From positions 31,674-95,673 of the forward strand of contig DATFYA010000021.1 of assembly GCA_035315345.1 (NCBI GenBank): a DNA stretch of 64,000 bases, in the 5' to 3' direction. Every line of letters begins with the position of its first letter. Within the stretch, counting starts at the first letter, position 1. Positions 3,522-57,019 of the stretch are shown here, piece by piece. Origin of the DNA: Candidatus Methylomirabilota bacterium (lineage in GTDB: Bacteria; Methylomirabilota; Methylomirabilia; Rokubacteriales; CSP1-6). The position numbers and the translations under genes are program-made. A model generated the notes under the pieces. The model did no database searches. It saw only the letters and a list, made by a program, of their open reading frames with translations, and was not told where the DNA came from.

Positions 3522-5798
3522 CTAGAAGGAGGAGCCGGCGGAGAAATTGAACTCGCCGAAGCTCTCTCCCTTTTTCTGGTCGAGCTTGATCCCGTAATCG
3601 ATGCGAATCGGCCCAAACGGCGAGTTCCATCTTAACCCGGCCCCGACCCCGTACCGAAGATCCGAGAGGTCGATCTTCGTTCCGGCCGAGATGTCGGGGC
3701 CCCACACCTGACCGATGTCGGTGAAGACCGCGGCCTTGAGGCCGAACACGAGGGGGATCTGGTACTCGACGCTGAACAGCAGCTCGCTGTTGCCGCCGAT
3801 CCGGGTACCGGTGCTGTCCTTCGGGGACACCTGCAGTGACTTGAACTGCCGCAGGGAGTTCGAGCCGCCCAGGTAGAAGCGCTCGAACAGCGGGACCGGC
3901 TCGTTGCTCCAGCCGAGGGAATAGCCGGCCAGGAGGCGGTAGCTCAACACGTGGTTGAGCCACGGCAGCGGCTGGAAGTAGCTGGACGAGACCACGCTCC
4001 GGATGAACTGCTCGCCGAAGCCCACCCCGCCGAAGTCGAACCCGAAGACGGACAGGCCGCCGCGGGTGGGATCGAAGACGTTGTCGCGGGTGTCGCGCGT
4101 GAAGTTCACGCCGATCAGGGACGTGAGATGGGTACCTTCCTGCGACAGCAGCTCGGGGCTGCCCAGCGGGTTCACGTCGCTGACCCGGTCCTCGCTGACC
4201 CGGTAGGTGGCGTTCCAGCGGGAGTACTCCCCGAAGGGATGCCCGAGCCGGATGTCGCCGCCCAGGGAGTTGACGGTGTAGTCGGGGAGGATCCGGCGCG
4301 TGTTGAAGAGATCGAAGCCGGCGGCGAGCGGGCGATCGAAGAGCCAGGGCTCGGTGAAGCCGATCGTCCCGGTCTGGATATTCTCGCCGCCCCGGATGCG
4401 CAGGAACACCTCCCAGCCCTTGCCGAGGAAGTTGCGCTGCGAGAGGTCGAGGGTGCCGAGGACGCCGTCCTGGGAGCTGTAGCCGCCGCCGATCGAGAAG
4501 AGGCCGGTCGGCTTCTCGGTCACGTCGATGTTGACGATGATCTTGTCCTTGGAGGACCCGGGCGCGGTCTTGGCCTCGACCTTGTCGAAGTAGTTGAGGT
4601 TGGTCAGCCGCTGCTTGGCTCGCGCGAGCTTCTGGCTCGTGAAGAGGTCGCCCTCGGCCATCGGGATCTCACGCCGGAGGATCTTCTCCTCGCTCCGGGT
4701 ATTGCCCGCGATGTTGATCCGCTCGACGTACGTCTCGGGGCCCTCCGAGATCTCGAAGGTGACGTTGATGACCCGCCCCGGAGTGTCCTGGGTGGTGTTG
4801 GGCGTCACGTCGGCGGAGGCGCGCCCGATCGCGCTGTAGAGGTCGGCGACCCCCTTGACGCTGTCCCGCAGCTTGGTGCGGGAGAACACGTCACCGGTCC
4901 GGAACTCGATCCGCTTCCGGATCTCCTCCTGGGGCAGCACCGAGTTGCCGGTCACGTCCACGCCGCCCACCTTGAACTGGGGCCCCTCCACCACCACCAC
5001 CCGGATGGTGGCGCGGGCGTTCACCCGGTCCACGTTGATCTCCGACTTCTCCACCCGCGCCTGCACGTAGCCGTAGTCGTTGTAGAGCTGGATGATCCGG
5101 TCCACGTCCTCGTCGAGCCGCTGGCGCTGAACCGTCCCCCGCAGGACGATGTACTCTCGCTCCTGGGTCTCCATGACCCGCTTGACTTCCTTGGGGGTGA
5201 GCCCCTGCGCGCCCTCGATCACGATCTGGTCGATGCTGATGCGGCGGCCTTCGGCGATACGGAAGGTGATGGTCACGTCCCCGTCGGGCAGCTTCTCGAC
5301 GTCGGGGGTGATGCCGACCTCGAAGTAGCCTTCCTGCTCGTAGAACTCCTTCAGCTTGTCGGCGGCCCGGTTGACCTCCACCGGGTTGTACACGCTGCCG
5401 AGCTTCAGATCGATCTTCTCCTGAAGGGTGGCCGAGTCCTGTTTCTTGTTGCCGGCGAAGAGGATGTCGCGGATGAACGGGCGTTCCGCCACCACGTAGA
5501 CCAGCTTGACGCCGCCTTCGAAGTCCTCGACCTTCACCTGGACGTCGTCGAAGAAGCCGAGGGCGAAGATGGCTCGGATGTCCTCGGCGGTCCGGCTGGC
5601 TGCGAAGGGTGTGCCGATCTTGGCCCCGACCCGGCCCAGGATCACCGCCTCCTGGACGCGGCGGTTCCCCTGGACCGCGATCTCCTTGATGATGATCGGC
5701 TTGTCAGCGGGAGCGGGGACCTGGGCGAGTGCCGCGAACGGCCCTAGAAGGATCGCAAAAAAAATGGAGAGAGCGTATCTCCCCCGAGCGGTCATCAA
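3522..5798 (-). CDS. bamA: outer membrane protein assembly factor BamA
   Basis: 758 aa with a signal peptide, POTRA repeats and an Omp85 beta-barrel. It ends in the aromatic C-terminal signature (...FNFSAGSSF). Confidence 0.95.
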   Translation of the reverse strand: MMTARGRYALSIFFAILLGPFAALAQVPAPADKPIIIKEIAVQGNRRVQEAVILGRVGAKIGTPFAASRTAEDIRAIFALGFFDDVQVKVEDFEGGVKLVYVVAERPFIRDILFAGNKKQDSATLQEKIDLKLGSVYNPVEVNRAADKLKEFYEQEGYFEVGITPDVEKLPDGDVTITFRIAEGRRISIDQIVIEGAQGLTPKEVKRVMETQEREYIVLRGTVQRQRLDEDVDRIIQLYNDYGYVQARVEKSEINVDRVNARATIRVVVVEGPQFKVGGVDVTGNSVLPQEEIRKRIEFRTGDVFSRTKLRDSVKGVADLYSAIGRASADVTPNTTQDTPGRVINVTFEISEGPETYVERINIAGNTRSEEKILRREIPMAEGDLFTSQKLARAKQRLTNLNYFDKVEAKTAPGSSKDKIIVNIDVTEKPTGLFSIGGGYSSQDGVLGTLDLSQRNFLGKGWEVFLRIRGGENIQTGTIGFTEPWLFDRPLAAGFDLFNTRRILPDYTVNSLGGDIRLGHPFGEYSRWNATYRVSEDRVSDVNPLGSPELLSQEGTHLTSLIGVNFTRDTRDNVFDPTRGGLSVFGFDFGGVGFGEQFIRSVVSSSYFQPLPWLNHVLSYRLLAGYSLGWSNEPVPLFERFYLGGSNSLRQFKSLQVSPKDSTGTRIGGNSELLFSVEYQIPLVFGLKAAVFTDIGQVWGPDISAGTKIDLSDLRYGVGAGLRWNSPFGPIRIDYGIKLDQKKGESFGEFNFSAGSSF

Positions 5799-35096: not shown

Positions 35097-36404
35097 ATGA
35101 GAAAGGTGCTGGCAACGGTGTTGAGTGTGGTGTCGGCGGTCTCCCTCTCGGCCACGGTCGGGATGGCTCAGACCTCCTGCCCCGCCGAGGTGGCATCCGC
35201 GAAGGCCATGCTGGGTCAGATGGCCAAGAGCCAGGACGTCCAGGCGCCTCGCTCGCTGGCGGGCGCTCGGTCGCAGGACGTGCAGGCGCCGCGGGCTCAG
35301 GATGTGCAGGCTCCGCGGTCGCAGGATATCCAGGCGCCCCGTTCGCTGGCGGGCGCTCGGTCGCAGGACGTGCAGGCGCCGCGCGGTCAGGACATCCAGG
35401 CTCCGCGTAGCCAGGACATCCAGGCTCCGCGTGGTCAGAACATCCAGGCGCCGCGCAGTCAGGACGTTCAGGCTCCTCGGAGTCAGGACATCCAGGCCCC
35501 GCGCTCGCTAGCGGGCGCCCGGTCGCAGGACGTGCAGGCTCCTCGCGGTCAGGACATCCAGGCCCCGCGTGGTCAGGACGTTCAGGCGCCGCGCAGCCAG
35601 GACGTGCAGGCTCCCCGCGGTCAGGACATCCAGGCCCCACGTGGTCAGAACATCCAGGCTCCGCGCAGCCAGGACGTGCAGGCGCCGCGTGGCCAGGACA
35701 TCCAGGCCCCGCGTGGTCAGGACGTGCAGGCTCCTCGCAGCCAGGACATCCAGGCTCCGCGCTCGATGGCGGGGGCTCGGTCGCAGGACGTCCAGGCTCC
35801 GCGCAGCCAGGACGTGCAGGCTCCGCGCGGTCAGGACATCCAGGCGCCGCGTGGCCAGGACATCCAGGCCCCGCGTGGTCAGGACGTGCAGGCTCCTCGC
35901 AGCCAGGACGTACAGGCGCCGCGCGGTCAGAACATCCAGGCCCCGCGTGGTCAGGACGTGCAGGCTCCTCGTAGCCAGGACGTACAGGCGCCGCGCGGTC
36001 AGAACATCCAGGCCCCGCGTGGCCAGGACGTGCAGGCTCCTCGTAGCCAGGACGTACAGGCTCCTCGCGGTCAGGACATCCAGGCCCCGCGTGGCCAGGA
36101 CGTGCAGGCTCCTCGTAGCCAGGACGTGCAGGCTCCTCGGGGTCAGGACATCCAGGCTCCGCGCAGCCAGGACGTGCAGGCTCCTCGTGGCCAGGACATC
36201 CAGGCTCCTCGCGGCCAGAACATCCAGGCTCCGCGGACCCAGGACGTGCAGGCCCCGCGTGCCCAGGATGTGCAGGCTCCGCGCTCGGCTGATTTCAAGA
36301 AGGCTTCTGGCCTCGTGAGCGAGGCGGAGGCCGCGTGCAAGGCCGGGAACACGTCGCTGGCCAGTGACAAGGCCAAGGCGGCGATGGAGCTGATGAAGAA
36401 GTAG
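35097..36404 (+). CDS. secreted tandem-repeat protein: signal peptide + 41 x octapeptide (S/G)-Q-D-(V/I)-Q-A-P-R with four S(L/M)AGAR inserts + short helical C-terminal tail
   Basis: 435-aa ORF with an AAGGA RBS 8 nt upstream. It has an N-terminal signal peptide (MRKVLATVLSVVSAVSLSATVGMA|QTS) and a 1056-nt perfectly in-frame 24-nt repeat array. The flanks are related Cys-containing Ala/Lys-rich segments (SCPAEVASAKAML / AACKAGNTSLASDKAKAAMELMKK). A strong intrinsic terminator follows. I do not recognise a homologous family. Confidence 0.85.
   Translation: MRKVLATVLSVVSAVSLSATVGMAQTSCPAEVASAKAMLGQMAKSQDVQAPRSLAGARSQDVQAPRAQDVQAPRSQDIQAPRSLAGARSQDVQAPRGQDIQAPRSQDIQAPRGQNIQAPRSQDVQAPRSQDIQAPRSLAGARSQDVQAPRGQDIQAPRGQDVQAPRSQDVQAPRGQDIQAPRGQNIQAPRSQDVQAPRGQDIQAPRGQDVQAPRSQDIQAPRSMAGARSQDVQAPRSQDVQAPRGQDIQAPRGQDIQAPRGQDVQAPRSQDVQAPRGQNIQAPRGQDVQAPRSQDVQAPRGQNIQAPRGQDVQAPRSQDVQAPRGQDIQAPRGQDVQAPRSQDVQAPRGQDIQAPRSQDVQAPRGQDIQAPRGQNIQAPRTQDVQAPRAQDVQAPRSADFKKASGLVSEAEAACKAGNTSLASDKAKAAMELMKK
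35229..36284 (+). repeat. 24-nt coding tandem repeat array (41 copies plus four 18-nt insert units)
   Basis: Consensus unit caggacgtgcaggctcctcgcggt. Copies differ mostly at synonymous third positions (gcg/gct/gcc, ccg/cct/ccc, cgc/cgt/cgg, gtg/gtc/atc). It generates spurious antisense ORFs at 35089..35640 and 35508..36422. Confidence 0.95.
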
Positions 36405-40297: not shown

Positions 40298-40373
40298 TGG
40301 TGGAGACGAGGGGAGTCGAACCCCCGACCTCGGCGTTGCGAACGCCGCGCTCTCCCAACTGAGCTACGTCCCC
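40298..40373 (-). tRNA. tRNA-Ala (anticodon CGC)
   Basis: The reverse complement GGGGACGTAGCTCAGTTGGGAGAGCGCGGCGTTCGCAACGCCGAGGTCGGGGGTTCGACTCCCCTCGTCTCCACCA folds as a 76-nt cloverleaf. It has the G3:U70 Ala identity pair, anticodon loop TTCGCAA and an encoded CCA. Confidence 0.9.
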
Positions 40374-50260: not shown

Positions 50261-51124
50261 CTACTTCACGGCCGCCGCGGCCGCCTCCATCGCGCGCTTG
50301 GCGAACACGCGCAGCAGATGGCTCTTGTACTCGACCGAGCCCTGCAGGTCGGCCTGGACGTCCACGCCCTCGGCCGCCTTCTCGGCGGCGGCCTGGATCG
50401 ACGCGGCGTCGGTGCCCTTGCCGGTGATCGCCGCCTCCACGCCCTTGGCGCGGACCGCTTTCGTGCCGGCGCCGGTGACGCCCACGCTGGCCTTGCCGAT
50501 CTTGCCGCCGTCGACGCTCAGCACCGCGGCCACCCCCACCACCGCGAAGCGCGACGCCGGGTGCGGGAACTTCATGTAGGCGGCGCCGGTCTTGGGCGCC
50601 ATCGCGGGCACCCGCACCTCGGTCAGGATCTCGTCGGCGGCCAGCGCGGTGGTGAGCAGGCCCTTGAAGAAATCGTCGGCCTTGATCGTCCGCTTGCCCT
50701 TCGGTCCCTCCGCCACCATCTCGGCCCCGAGCGCGATGATCGCGGCCGGGTAGTCCGCGGCCGGGTCCGCGTGCGCGAGGCTGCCGCCGATCGTGCCCAT
50801 GTTGCGCACCATCGGGTCGCCGATCTGCGCGGCCACCGCGGCGAGCACCGGGCACCTCGACTTCACCACCGGCGAGGACTCGACCTGGTAGTGCGTGGTC
50901 ATCGCGCCGATGACCAGCGCGCCGCCTTCCTCCTTGATGCCGGACAGCCCGGGAATCTTGCGCAGGTCGACCAGGTGCTTGGGCTGGGCCAGGCGCAGCT
51001 TCATGGCCGGTAGCAGGCTGTGGCCGCCCGCGAGGAGCTTGGCGTCGTCCTTGTGACGCCCGAGCAGGTCCAGCGCCTCTTTCACCGTCCCCGGCGTGTA
51101 GTACTCGAACTGAGCTGGGTACAT
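50261..51124 (-). CDS. coxM: xanthine dehydrogenase family molybdoenzyme, FAD-binding medium subunit (CoxM-like)
   Basis: FAD_binding_5 plus CO-dehydrogenase flavoprotein C-terminal domain (AGGHSLLP...). Confidence 0.85.
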   Translation of the reverse strand: MYPAQFEYYTPGTVKEALDLLGRHKDDAKLLAGGHSLLPAMKLRLAQPKHLVDLRKIPGLSGIKEEGGALVIGAMTTHYQVESSPVVKSRCPVLAAVAAQIGDPMVRNMGTIGGSLAHADPAADYPAAIIALGAEMVAEGPKGKRTIKADDFFKGLLTTALAADEILTEVRVPAMAPKTGAAYMKFPHPASRFAVVGVAAVLSVDGGKIGKASVGVTGAGTKAVRAKGVEAAITGKGTDAASIQAAAEKAAEGVDVQADLQGSVEYKSHLLRVFAKRAMEAAAAAVK

Positions 51125-51137
51125 GTCGGCGTCTCCC

Positions 51138-53498
<2,361 letters not shown>

Positions 53499-53507
53499 GG
53501 TCGCGCC

Positions 53508-53981
53508 TCACTTCCCCGCCATCTGCTCGGCGGCGTACTGGATGGCCTTGACGATGTTGTGGTACCCCGTGCAGCGGCACAGGTTGCCTTCCAGGTCGTG
53601 GCGGATCTGCGCCTCGGTGGGTCGCGGGTTGCGCTGCAGCATCTGGTGCGCCGACATGATCATGCCCGGCGTGCAGAAGCCGCACTGCAACCCGTGCTTC
53701 TCCCAGAACCCGTTCTGGATCGGATGCAGCTTGCCGTCCTTGGCGAGGCCCTCGATGGTGAGCACCTGCGCGCCCTCGCACTGCACCGCGAGCAGCGTGC
53801 ACGACTTCACGGCCACGCCGTTGACGTGCACCGTGCACGCCCCGCACTGGCTCGTGTCGCAGCCGACGTGCGTGCCGGTCAGACCCGCCTGCTCCCGGAT
53901 GTAGTGCACGAGCAGGAGCCGGGGCTCCACGTCGTGGGACTGGGGGGCGCCGTTGATCGTCATCGACACGGTCTTTTTCAC
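53508..53981 (-). CDS. coxS: [2Fe-2S] small subunit (CoxS-like)
   Basis: Two [2Fe-2S] motifs (CDTSQCGAC...CGFC...CRCTGY). The GTG start ([14 protein letters not shown]) is preceded by an AGGAGG RBS. The S-L-M gene order is typical of form II clusters. Confidence 0.85.
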
Positions 53982-54053
53982 TGCGCTACCTCCTGGGTGA
54001 AGGGTCCGAGGCCGGGAAAACGCCCACAACCGTATGCCGGGGCGAGGACGGTG

Positions 54054-55304
54054 TCAAGGGGTGCCGCCGAGGAGGCGGCGACCTTCGATGCGGGCCTGCT
54101 CCAGGACTTCGCGGACCGCCACGCCTCGGTCGCGCGCGATGCGTCGGACCTCCTCGAACTCGGGTGTCACCGTGACCACGCGACCCTCCAGACGGGAGAC
54201 CTTGAAGTCCACCGGCCCGTACATCGTGTCGAGACGCACCATCTCCCGGTCGAGCCGGGCGCGCTGGTAGGCGGTCCACCGCACCCCGATGGTCGAGGAC
54301 TCCTCGAAGAGCACCCGGGACAGCTCGGTCACCCGACCGGGCTCGCACAGCGCGGTGAGCACGATGCCGGGACGGCTCCGCTTCATGATGACCGGCGTGA
54401 GCCAGGCGTCGAGGGCGCCCGCGGCGAGCAGGCGCTCGAGGAGGGGTTCGTAGAGCTGTGGCGACATGTCGTCGATGGTGGTCTCGACCTGGACGATGGT
54501 CTCGGCCGGCGCGGTCACCGCCGCCTCGCCCACGAAGAGGCGCAGCACGTTCGGAGTGTCGAGCTCCATCGTGCCGGCGCCGTAGCCGACCGCGGTGACC
54601 CGCATGGCCGGCATCGCCCCCGCCCCCGCGGCCAGCGTCGTCAGGATGGCCGCGCCGGTCGGGGTCACCAGCTCGCGCCGGATGCCGGTGTCGAGCGTGG
54701 GAAAGCCCTTCAGCATCTCCGCGGTTGCGGGACCCGGCACCGGCATCTTGCCGTGGGGACCCTCGATGAAGCCGCCGCCCACCGGCAACGCGCTGAAGTG
54801 GACCGCGTCGATGCCGAGCAGGTAGAGCCCGATGCACGAGCCGGTGACGTCCACGATGGCGTCGACGGCGCCCACGTCGTGGAATTGCACGCGCTCGGGC
54901 GTCGTCCCGTGTACGCGGGCCTCCGCCGCGGCGAGCCGGCGGAAGACGCGCGAGGCCATGTCGCGTACCGCGGGTGCCAGGCGGCTACCGTCGAGGATGC
55001 CGAGGATCTCCTCGAGCCCCCGGTGCCCGGAAGCCCGATGCCCGGTGGAGTGCGCGGGCCGCGCGCCCTGGGCGGCCCGGCCCATGTAGCCCGGGTCCTG
55101 CTCGTAGCCGTCCAGGTGCACGTCGACCTTCGTGGCCCGGAAGCCGGCCTTCATGACCTCGCGGCGCTCCAGCCGGTAGCCGGCCACGCTGAGGCCGGCC
55201 AGCTCGCGCTCGAGTGTGTCGAAGGAGGCGCCGGCGTCGACGAGCGCGCCGAGGATCATGTCGCCCGAGGCGCCGCTCGGGCAATCGAAGTAGGCGATCT
55301 TCAT
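54054..55304 (-). CDS. larC: nickel-pincer cofactor biosynthesis protein LarC (CTP-dependent nickel insertase, DUF111)
   Basis: The conserved N-terminus is MKIAYFDCPSGASGDM. The ORF-track start adds MSGPPQ at 55322. Full-length architecture is LarC1-LarC2. Confidence 0.8.
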   Translation of the reverse strand: MKIAYFDCPSGASGDMILGALVDAGASFDTLERELAGLSVAGYRLERREVMKAGFRATKVDVHLDGYEQDPGYMGRAAQGARPAHSTGHRASGHRGLEEILGILDGSRLAPAVRDMASRVFRRLAAAEARVHGTTPERVQFHDVGAVDAIVDVTGSCIGLYLLGIDAVHFSALPVGGGFIEGPHGKMPVPGPATAEMLKGFPTLDTGIRRELVTPTGAAILTTLAAGAGAMPAMRVTAVGYGAGTMELDTPNVLRLFVGEAAVTAPAETIVQVETTIDDMSPQLYEPLLERLLAAGALDAWLTPVIMKRSRPGIVLTALCEPGRVTELSRVLFEESSTIGVRWTAYQRARLDREMVRLDTMYGPVDFKVSRLEGRVVTVTPEFEEVRRIARDRGVAVREVLEQARIEGRRLLGGTP

Positions 55305-55330
55305 CTGCGGGGGCCCCGACATGGCCCCCG

Positions 55331-55452
55331 CACTCCCCCCATCGGCGGGCAGCCGGGTGCGTCAGTCACCGCCACTCCCCCCATCGGCGGGCAGCCGGGT
55401 GCGTCGGTCACCGCCACTCCCCCCATCGGCGGGCAGCCGGGTGGGTCACCGC
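55331..55452. repeat. 3 x 42-bp perfect tandem direct repeat at the larB/larC junction
   Basis: cactccccccatcggcgggcagccgggtgcgtcagtcaccgc at 55331..55372 is repeated at 55373..55414 with one substitution. A third copy at 55415..55452 has a 4-nt deletion. The third copy contains the larB stop codon (55446..55448). Confidence 0.95.
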
Positions 55453-56204
55453 AACTTGGAGGCGAGCTTGTTGATCTGATTGGCCTGGGCGGCGGCGCCG
55501 TAGCCGTTGTCGATGTTGACCACCGACACGCCGGGCGCGCACGAGTTCAGCATGGCGAGCAGCGCGGCCACGCCGCCGAGCGAGGCGCCGTAGCCCACGC
55601 TGGTCGGGACCGCGATGACCGGCCGGTCCACGAGGCCACCCAGCACGGTCGGCAGCGCGCCTTCCATGCCCGCCACCGCGATGATCGCGTTGGCCTCGTT
55701 CAAGCGGTCGAGGTGCGGCACCAGCCGGTGCAGCCCGGCCACGCCGCAGTCGAACAGCCGCTCGACCGCGTTGCCCATCGCCTCGGCGGTCACCGCGGCC
55801 TCCTCGGCCACCGGCTGGTCGGACGTGCCCGCGCTCACCACCACGATGAGGCCGACGCCCTCGGACGGCGCCGGATTGACCACGACCAGCCGGGCCATCT
55901 CGTGAACCCGGCACGGCAGCCCGCTCGCGAGCAGCGCCTCGATCACGTCGGCGGAGGCGCGGGTGGCCAGGACGTTGTGGTGGCCCTCGGCGAGCCGGCG
56001 CCCGATCGCCACCACCTGCTCCGGCGTCTTGCCCTGGCAGAAGATCGCCTCGGGCACGCCGTGACGGAGCGAGCGATGCACGTCCACGCGCGCGAAGCGC
56101 AGGTCCTCGACCGGCAGGTCGCGCAGCCGGGCCAGCGCCTGCGCGGGGCTGATCGTCCCGCGCGCGACCGCCTCGAGCAGCGCGGCTACTTTTTCCCGAT
56201 CCAC
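55446..56204 (-). CDS. larB: nickel-pincer cofactor biosynthesis protein LarB (PurE-like NaAD carboxylase/hydrolase)
   Basis: LarB N-terminal domain plus PurE-like C-terminal domain (VVVSAGTSDQPVAEE...GMEGALP). The candidate GTG start at about 56204 overlaps the larE 3' end by about 19 nt, so the start is uncertain. The 426-aa ORF-track call is an extension. Confidence 0.8.
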   Translation of the reverse strand: MDREKVAALLEAVARGTISPAQALARLRDLPVEDLRFARVDVHRSLRHGVPEAIFCQGKTPEQVVAIGRRLAEGHHNVLATRASADVIEALLASGLPCRVHEMARLVVVNPAPSEGVGLIVVVSAGTSDQPVAEEAAVTAEAMGNAVERLFDCGVAGLHRLVPHLDRLNEANAIIAVAGMEGALPTVLGGLVDRPVIAVPTSVGYGASLGGVAALLAMLNSCAPGVSVVNIDNGYGAAAQANQINKLASKLR

Positions 56205-57019
56205 TTGAGCGCCTCGTTGGCGCTGCCGCTGCGAAAGCCCTGCAGGTCGAGGGTGACGTAGAGATAGCCCAGCTCGCGGAACCGCCGCACGATCGCGGTG
56301 TGGCGGTCCTCCTGCCACAGCCGGCCCATCTCGTCGGGCGGCAGCTCGATGCGCGCCAGGCGGTCGTGATGGCGCACCCGGAACTGGCGGAAGCCGAGCC
56401 CGCGCAGAAACGCCTCCGCCTCGTCGATCTGCCGCAGCTTGGCCGGCGTGATGAGATCGCCGTACTGGAAGCGCGAGGACAGGCAGGCGAACGAGGGCTT
56501 GTCCCACGTGGGCAGGCCGAGATCGCGCGACAGCGCGCGGATCTCCTCCTTCCACAGCGCGGCCTCGATCAGCGGCGCGCGCACCCCGCGGGCCTGGGCG
56601 GCCTTCATGCCCGGCCGGTGATCGCCGAGGTCGTCCATGTTCGCCCCGTAGACGACCTGCGCGACGCCGGCCCGACGGGCGATCGGCTCCAGCCGCGAGA
56701 ACAGCTCCTCCTTGCAGTGAAAGCACCGGTCCGGCGAGTTGCGCGCGTACTCGGGCCGGTCCAGCTCGTGCGTGCGCACCACCTCGTGCCGCAGGCCCAG
56801 GAGCGCGGCGAGGCGGCGCGTCTCCTCGAGCTCGGCGGCCGGGTAGGTCTCGGAGTCGGCGGTGACCAGCAGCGCGTCGGCGCCCACCGCGTCCTTCGCG
56901 GCGCGGGCCAGGAAGGTGGAGTCCACCCCGCCGGAGAAGGCCACCACCACGCGGCCCATGCCGCGGACGATGTCGAGCAGCCGGTGGTACTTGTCGGCGA
57001 GCGCGGCTTCGCGGGTCAT
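56186..57019 (-). CDS. larE: nickel-pincer cofactor biosynthesis ATP-dependent sulfur transferase LarE (PP-loop ATPase)
   Basis: PP-loop SGGVDS in VAFSGGVDSTFLA. The likely start is MTREAALADKYHRLL. It contains CFHC plus ACLSSR, three cysteines in total. Confidence 0.8.
   Translation of the reverse strand: MTREAALADKYHRLLDIVRGMGRVVVAFSGGVDSTFLARAAKDAVGADALLVTADSETYPAAELEETRRLAALLGLRHEVVRTHELDRPEYARNSPDRCFHCKEELFSRLEPIARRAGVAQVVYGANMDDLGDHRPGMKAAQARGVRAPLIEAALWKEEIRALSRDLGLPTWDKPSFACLSSRFQYGDLITPAKLRQIDEAEAFLRGLGFRQFRVRHHDRLARIELPPDEMGRLWQEDRHTAIVRRFRELGYLYVTLDLQGFRSGSANEALKWIGKK

Follow-up and report, generated by a model that had tools for sequence, protein, structure and literature searches.

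The spacer between larB and larC in the window (the whole stretch of DNA that was analysed, 64 kb long, with a G+C content of about 70%) is filled by three head-to-tail repeat units of 38, 42 and 42 nt, and we consider it likely that this array is a hypervariable intercistronic minisatellite (VNTR) which arose in place in one Rokubacteria (Methylomirabilota) population and is probably near-neutral. The number of units differs among strains, sister species do not have the repeat, and the predicted structure at the larC start stays flat as copy number changes; that the array is near-neutral and that it grew by slippage we infer from comparing sequences. A preliminary description of this DNA had put forward three possible roles, namely a device for translational coupling or attenuation, a three-iteron protein-binding site and a neutral VNTR, and it is the last of these that the data support, with a copy number that varies and nearest species that have no spacer at all.

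Layout of the larB-larC junction

The array sits within a larE-larB-larC gene set, in which larE is the first gene and overlaps the start of larB; the cox-type genes coxS and coxL follow downstream of larC. The features referred to below are these:

54054..55304, minus strand: larC, 416 aa, start MKIAYFD; NCBIfam LarC1 and LarC2 (5e-60 and 7e-41)
55301..55426, minus strand: repeat ORF, 41 codons, running through array and hairpin, MGGVAVTDAPGCPPMGGVAVTDAPGCPPMGGVRGPCRGPRR; its TGA (55303..55301) overlaps the larC ATG (55304..55302) as ATGA
55305..55333, minus strand: GC hairpin, GTGCGGGGGCC-ATGTCGG-GGCCCCCGCAG; 10-bp stem 55332..55323 / 55315..55306, 7-nt loop
55331..55372, minus strand: repeat unit 3, 42 nt, 'T' type, GTGACTGACG; AUG at 55342
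55373..55414, minus strand: repeat unit 2, 42 nt, 'C' type, GTGACCGACG; AUG at 55384; one mismatch to unit 3
55415..55452, minus strand: repeat unit 1 (in mRNA order), 38 nt, GCGGTGACC----CACCCGGCTGCCCGCCGATGGGGGGAGTG; holds the last larB codon, the larB stop and AUG 55426
55446..56204, minus strand: larB, 252 aa in public assemblies, stop TGA at 55448..55446; NCBIfam NF033503 LarB, E = 7e-85
56186..57019, minus strand: larE, 277 aa in public assemblies; NCBIfam TIGR00268 LarE, E = 8e-100

Fifteen public contigs encode the identical 252-aa LarB. On the coding (minus) strand, from 55452 to 55331, the units are phased as GCGGTGAC...GGGGGGAGTG, and the junction reads, in mRNA sense from the end of larB to the start of larC, ...AAG TTG CGG TGA-CCCACCCGGCTGCCCGCCGATGGGGGGAGTG / GCGGTGACCGACGCACCCGGCTGCCCGCCGATGGGGGGAGTG / GCGGTGACTGACGCACCCGGCTGCCCGCCGATGGGGGGAGTG / CGGGGGCCATGTCGGGGCCCCCGCAG-ATGAAGATC... 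The program TRF found one tandem array, at 55331-55448 (period 42, 2.8 copies, 96% matches, score 222). A 42-mer of the array matches 55331-55372 exactly and 55373-55414 with one mismatch, where none would be expected and where 100 shuffles gave no such matches, so that the array has one of the marks by which a VNTR is recognised, namely head-to-tail units of 10-100 bp with high identity.

The preliminary description had called the array a perfect repeat of 3 x 42 bp. The three units do lie where it had placed them, but the repeat is not perfect: as the body of that description itself had noted, one base separates the two full units, and a deletion leaves unit 1 shorter than units 2 and 3 by 4 nt. 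The larB stop had been correctly located in the third copy, since TGA 55448..55446 falls in the third unit on the plus strand, which is the first on the mRNA. A CCGCC/GGCGG stem, ascribed to every copy, is present in two of the three units and missing in the other, and the GGGGGGAG run that had been likened to a Shine-Dalgarno sequence sits 3' of each AUG and cannot serve that AUG. The plus-strand ORFs 51123..56261 and 55214..55474, whose repetitive peptide had been attributed to the array, do exist, and both carry a threefold repeated peptide.

The 42-nt unit was found neither in the rest of the window nor in the loci of 80 relatives (about 600 kb in total), and a fuzzy search of the window together with 83 loci returned the larB-larC locus only. 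An exact-pattern scan of JGI metagenomes with a 22-mer of the unit (CTGCCCGCCGATGGGGGGAGTG) likewise returned this locus only, in a scan whose negatives are not exhaustive, because it missed two JGI contigs, L085 (Ga0209971_1000097) and L087 (Ga0070695_100096366), which contain the 22-mer twice each.

Unit number within the population

Contigs from the same population were collected through the JGI 22-mer scan and through exact look-ups of the LarC and LarB proteins (ENA, JGI, Logan). The scan yielded three contigs (L081-L083), all of them from this locus, all ending inside the array and with flanking DNA 99.8-100% identical to the window, while the look-ups added 14 more places on 13 further contigs. 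The comparison of copy number that the preliminary description had proposed gave 1, 3, 4 or at least 4 units at 100% identity of LarB and/or LarC, across at least 15 independent assemblies:

1 unit: L088; 38-nt type only, the sole unit being that of unit 1 in the window; spacer 57 nt
3 units (38 + C + T): window, L086, L090
4 units (38 + C + T + T), the 'T' type occurring twice: L084 (same contig as L089)
At least 4 units: L096; last visible unit with a 5-G run
38-nt unit with a T unit immediately after it: L081
Rearranged arrays that include partial units or units of 41 nt: L094, L097, L083

The first unit of L097 is of the 42-nt type, and a 24-nt partial unit is common to L083 (JGI) and L094 (ENA). 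Over the population the spacer ranges from 57 to 183 nt. Because the tract is multi-allelic while the flanking proteins are invariant, the array behaves as a VNTR. The differences in copy number among near-identical genomes, a further mark of a VNTR, all come from short-read assemblies, in which exact copy numbers, especially that of the 1-copy allele, could reflect collapse. Nine contigs from separate assemblies break inside the array, as is expected of a repeat that is heterogeneous within samples.

That the assembler itself expanded or collapsed the repeat, and that the array is thus an artefact, is highly improbable. Every dataset is a short-read metagenome assembly, many contigs break in the array, and one contig (L082) is chimeric upstream, all of which would be in keeping with such an artefact; but at least 15 independent assemblies, drawn from ENA, JGI and Logan, contain the array together with its internal markers (the 4-nt indel and the C/T site). 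Moreover, the 3-copy allele was found three times and its 122 nt span is shorter than k = 141 and than typical reads, and the rare partial unit is common to a JGI and an ENA contig. In the chimeric contig L082 (Ga0209969_1006488), nt 1-1017 are SufS/SufU-like and unrelated to the window; the 3' half of larB (1018-1649) continues from them in frame, the point of fusion within larB being '...GKTPEQVVAIGRR'.

The junction in related species

A LarC-based scan with one genome per species returned only MAGs, and the best LarC matches came from Rokubacteria/Methylomirabilota, with 80-88% LarC identity. Nine relatives (L001-L008 and L010), roughly equidistant from the window, have the gene order larE-larB-larC-coxS. 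In eight of these nine genus-level relatives (L001, L003-L008 and L010; roughly 80-88% LarB/LarC identity) the distance from larB to larC is only -4 to +7 nt, the junction of L001 reading ...AAGCTCCGCTAGcccgcatATGAAG. Across Rokubacteria (L001-L049) the spacer ranges from -4 nt, a GTGA overlap, to 334 nt and holds unrelated GC-rich inserts that differ by clade, and on this comparison the larB-larC junction appears to be an insertion hotspot.

A recent tandem duplication of independent origin is present at the same junction in a different species, L033 (3854-4001; 77 nt x 1.9, 97% identity); across 433 kb of relatives' loci, only two other repeats of long period were found. Since the larC start codon is part of the duplication, its extra copy begins an ORF that terminates in ATGA at the true start. 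Small as the numbers are, this case suggests that duplications are tolerated or favoured at the larB-larC site.

In another Rokubacteria clade, the larB-larC spacer contains a conserved, long imperfect hairpin of about 130-190 nt (L017 3806-3994, L020 3856-4000, L029 3854-4000, L036 1412-1628, L045 1835-1991; shorter in L016 and L032). Compensatory double changes affect 10 of its 43 predicted pairs. It has no Rfam match, was seen at the larB-larC junction only, has CCGCCGATGRG in common with the unit in the window, and contains small ORFs that are chained to one another by ATGA and TGATG overlaps. This hairpin may represent a structured intercistronic element not described before, or else the remnant of a MITE.

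The larC start and the hairpin next to it

Nearly all of about 55 Rokubacteria LarC genes have a start at the MKIAYFD position, so that the conservation of MKIAYFD-type starts in relatives, raised as a point to check in the preliminary description, is borne out. Some gene callers instead place the larC start at ATG 55322 (MSGPPQ; MSGPPQMKIAYFD), a codon that is ACG in L086, L087, L088 and L090 and out of frame in L018. Because this ATG is ACG in those four contigs, MKIAYFD is, by sequence comparison, the real larC start, and ATG 55322 was rejected. There is no Shine-Dalgarno sequence before larC, here or in close relatives, unlike the cox genes of the same contig, which are preceded by GGAGG or GAGG; in close relatives, larC probably depends on coupling to larB.

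The GC hairpin (-23.5 kcal/mol) lies outside the repeat, directly after the array, and ends just before the larC ATG; it is followed by GCAGAUGAAG and spans -15 to -4 relative to the larC start. All six complete junctions of the population (window, L083, L084, L086, L088 and L090) have it in constant form at any copy number, and its substitutions are confined to the loop, which occurs as ATG, ACG (in the four contigs just named) or ATCTCTG. A fuzzy search for the hairpin in the window and 83 loci returned this locus and L002. Two other Rokubacteria species, with 85% and 63% LarC identity, bear it at the same junction: L002 (3923-3951) has both of its substitutions in the loop, and L018 (about 3960-3992) has mirrored one-base insertions in both arms. 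It is missing in other close relatives. Because the stem pairs never covary among the window, L002 and L018, this recurrence amounts to conservation and is no proof of structure. In L002, the AUG-initiated frame through the hairpin is kept despite a 3-nt in-frame indel.

The predicted energy needed to open the larC start (-15 to +12) was 21.8 kcal/mol with one copy of the unit, 20.8 and 21.5 kcal/mol with three and 20.0 kcal/mol with four, compared with 11-14 kcal/mol in relatives without a spacer. The hairpin thus roughly doubles the predicted cost of opening, and in these models the accessibility of the larC start is set by the hairpin and not by the array. Tuning by copy number through RNA accessibility was considered as a candidate mechanism and rejected, the predicted opening energy being flat over 1, 3 and 4 copies.

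The open reading frame through the array

The preliminary description had pointed out three AUGs in one frame and a UGA that overlaps the larC start as AUGA, and both statements hold: the ATGs at 55426, 55384 and 55342 are in frame and 42 nt apart, and the last two letters of the larC ATG are the first two of the TGA. The overlap exists because the second codon of larC (Lys2) is AAG. Since each unit amounts to 14 codons with one AUG and a stop-free frame, the number of AUGs and the length of the ORF rise with copy number, from 13 codons with one copy to 41 with three and 55 with four, and the ATGA overlap and the in-frame ORF are kept in the 1-, 3- and 4-copy alleles. The first AUG, 55426, lies 19 nt 3' of the larB TGA with no start codon farther upstream in that frame, and no Shine-Dalgarno sequence was found before any unit AUG. 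Units with a 5-G run shift the frame in L094 and L097 to the unit's own TGA (MGEWR-stop); the last visible unit of L096 carries the same 5-G run, on a contig that ends before the stop. The codon that matches the AUG nearest larC is CTG in L018. The two full units differ by one substitution, a synonymous one in the frame of the ORF (ACC/ACT), which is a single event without statistical weight.

When the spacer of the window was shuffled by dinucleotides, an ORF of equal coverage ending on the larC start was obtained in 21% of trials (P = 0.21), and with mononucleotide shuffles the chance of an ORF coverage of at least 85% was 0.13. Bridging ORFs were present in 16 of the 27 long larB-larC spacers, versus 8.6 expected from mononucleotide shuffles (P = 4e-4), and those of L018 and L020 overlap both the larB stop and the larC start. 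However, in a reverse-complement control 14 of the 27 long spacers were bridged, the window's own among them, and the per-locus P values from dinucleotide shuffles were for the most part unremarkable; on these two counts, bridging ORFs were rejected as evidence of selection. Because the reverse-complemented spacers are bridged at 14/27, openness is a trait of GC-rich, stop-poor sequence and not of the sense strand. The repeat ORF is not statistically distinguishable from a chance open frame.

Alternative explanations

The reading that competes most directly with a near-neutral minisatellite, and which we regard as unlikely, is that the array is a MIRU-like relay uORF: ribosomes that finish larB would reinitiate at the first AUG, melt the hairpin and be handed over at the AUGA to larC, with expansions either tolerated or tuning the LarC:LarB ratio. 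Every complete allele does have an AUG-initiated frame that passes through the hairpin and ends on the larC AUG, and the duplication in L033 also yields an ORF ending in ATGA on larC, but such frames look compositional, given 16/27 long spacers bridged in sense against 14/27 in reverse complement and the shuffle values for the window itself. A relay would suit a gene like larC, which has no Shine-Dalgarno sequence where the cox genes have GGAGG, although no unit AUG has one either. The persistence of the frame through the hairpin in L002, across the 3-nt indel, speaks for a relay; the CTG in L018 and the 5-G units of L094, L096 and L097, which shift the frame to the TGA of the unit (L096 ending before its stop), speak against it. 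With the hairpin, opening the larC start costs about 21 kcal/mol in prediction, where spacer-less relatives need 11-14 kcal/mol, and this speaks for a relay; that predicted accessibility is unchanged by copy number speaks against it. MIRUs provide a precedent for coupling at a -4 spacing (PMC12548453). If the relay reading were true, the device would be the single-copy spacer with its hairpin, and the extra copies would be tolerated passengers. A wider version holds that the array is a MIRU-like 'coupling cassette', in which a relay ORF brings ribosomes from the larB stop through the hairpin onto larC and copy number tunes LarC, a single-turnover nickel-insertion protein, against LarB, and that the junction inserts and the L033 duplication reflect selection on larB-larC coupling across Rokubacteria; this we think distinctly unlikely.

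Readings in which the unit acts as a structure or as a binding site fare worse. It is very unlikely that the unit stems form a structured RNA element (an attenuator, a processing site or an mRNA stabiliser) that sets the larB:larC transcript ratio. The RNA secondary-structure prediction suggested in the preliminary description went against it: the 201-nt junction has the stability of shuffled sequence (z = 0.03), with an equal or better fold in 99 of 200 shuffles. A small CCGCC/GGCGG stem is possible in two of the three units and a strong hairpin lies directly 3' of the array, but that hairpin is outside the repeat and constant in all six complete junctions whatever the copy number, and the unit itself is restricted to one lineage and varies in number. 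This reading has a parallel in other Rokubacteria clades, whose larB-larC junction bears the long hairpin with compensatory changes; against it stand the lack of any terminator-like site in 54900-55900, with no U tract after the GC stem-loop, and of any known family: a search of 54800-56000 against Rfam 15 at E up to 10 gave only chance-level matches (E of at least 1.7), and at the gathering threshold nothing was found at the junction in the window and 8 related loci. As for the three-iteron site of the preliminary description, taken here more broadly as an array of iteron-like or operator sites at four helical turns that would recruit a regulator of the lar operon, the regular 42-bp spacing is its sole support and we give it scarcely any credence. 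Strains carry anything from 1 to at least 4 sites instead of a set number; none of the relatives' loci has the unit, and the searches met it at no other place in the sequence covered; a palindromic operator is lacking, and a promoter scan predicted no promoter at the larB-larC junction that could be regulated; and the array lies between two cistrons of one transcription unit and not at an origin.

Comparison with known repeat systems

The closest parallel in layout is the MIRU-VNTR (Supply et al. 1997, summarised in PMC3184786 and PMC12548453), which consists of tandem 40-100 bp units in operons, between co-oriented genes. MIRUs occupy about 40-50 loci per genome and are seemingly mobile (PMC3184786, PMC12548453), and their ORFs are thought to preserve the expression of the downstream gene through a phased frame that stops on its start at a -4 spacing (PMC12548453). 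The array resembles them in that its 42-nt units lie between the co-oriented operon genes larB and larC, all on the minus strand, and in that an in-phase ORF has a -4 stop overlap (ATGA), a frame that is broken in L094, in L097 and in the last visible unit of L096. Its copy number is likewise strain-variable, and it is GC-rich with internal inverted repeats. It differs in that the start of the ORF does not overlap the larB stop, from which a 19-nt gap separates it. It may also differ in dispersal: MIRUs are dispersed, and the larB-larC unit is known from one locus (in the 64-kb window, 80 loci and an incomplete JGI scan). Because the unit contains the larB stop, it would have originated in place, unlike the mobile MIRUs. 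The host phylum is also a different one and the sequence is unrelated.

Generic bacterial minisatellites or VNTRs arise by slipped-strand mispairing, and most of those described come from cultured pathogens. The array shares with them near-identical head-to-tail units, microhomology at the borders, multiple alleles in a clonal background and no conservation of sequence beyond the population; it differs in belonging to an uncultured soil phylum and in lying exactly between two translationally linked genes of cofactor biosynthesis. Uses of a short ORF that ends on the start of the next gene are known from ribosome-delivering uORFs and from coupling by RNA unfolding (PMC12548453). The likeness extends to the hairpin, which occludes the downstream start and would be melted by an upstream ribosome, as in RNA-unfolding coupling (PMC12548453); in contrast to ribosome-delivering uORFs, the repeat ORF is putative, has no Shine-Dalgarno sequence and owes its openness to composition.

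Simple-sequence contingency loci, which underlie phase variation, are similar in that the length of a repeat tract changes at high frequency in the population. In contrast to them, the unit here is 42 nt (14 codons) long and lies outside both genes and any predicted promoter, and for that reason a change in array length cannot switch a frame or a promoter spacing. Iteron and operator arrays are set apart by the variable number of units, the missing promoter and the absence from relatives, an intrinsic terminator or attenuator by a GC hairpin that has no U tract, and the known RNA families by the lack of a covariance-model match (Rfam 15) at the junction. The array is an intercistronic VNTR with a MIRU-like layout, and not an iteron array, a terminator, a known RNA family or a frame-switching contingency locus.

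Origin and significance of the array

A minisatellite formed in place could have arisen as follows. An older insert, made up of a spacer of about 38 nt and the GC hairpin, would have split larB from larC, which abut or overlap in related species. In the 1-copy allele, the segment is flanked by near-identical direct repeats of 7-8 nt (AGTTGCGG at the larB end and AGTGCGG at the foot of the hairpin), and slipped-strand mispairing or unequal recombination between these may have duplicated it, since such events yield tandem duplications of just this type. Expansion, contraction and small indels would have gone on afterwards, leading to alleles of 1, 3, 4 or more units, and the 4-nt difference of unit 1 as well as the 42-nt-type first unit in L097 may record further indels or exchange among units. 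Because the unit includes the last larB codon and the stop, it would not have been imported as a ready-made mobile element.

We see the array as a clear natural case of a minisatellite with multiple alleles, here from an uncultured soil phylum, and as a strain marker it could be of use in this Rokubacteria population. It is also an annotation trap, as contigs break at it and gene callers make spurious repetitive peptides from it and choose a non-conserved larC start (MSGPPQ...). As a case of uORF-mediated coupling it is a modest candidate; were the relay reading true, MIRU-like preservation of translational coupling would extend beyond mycobacteria, and there would be a testable tuning by copy number between enzymes of nickel-pincer cofactor synthesis.

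Other features of the window

The sole Rfam match above the gathering threshold in the window is a tRNA gene at 40301-40373 on the minus strand. A second tandem repeat, within a coding sequence, is present in the ORF at 35097-36404 on the plus strand, whose 435-aa product has a signal-peptide-like N-terminus and roughly 40 tandem 8-residue repeats of the form (S/G)QD(V/I)QAPR; at the DNA level this repeat covers 35229-36284, with periods of 24, 48 and 72 nt.
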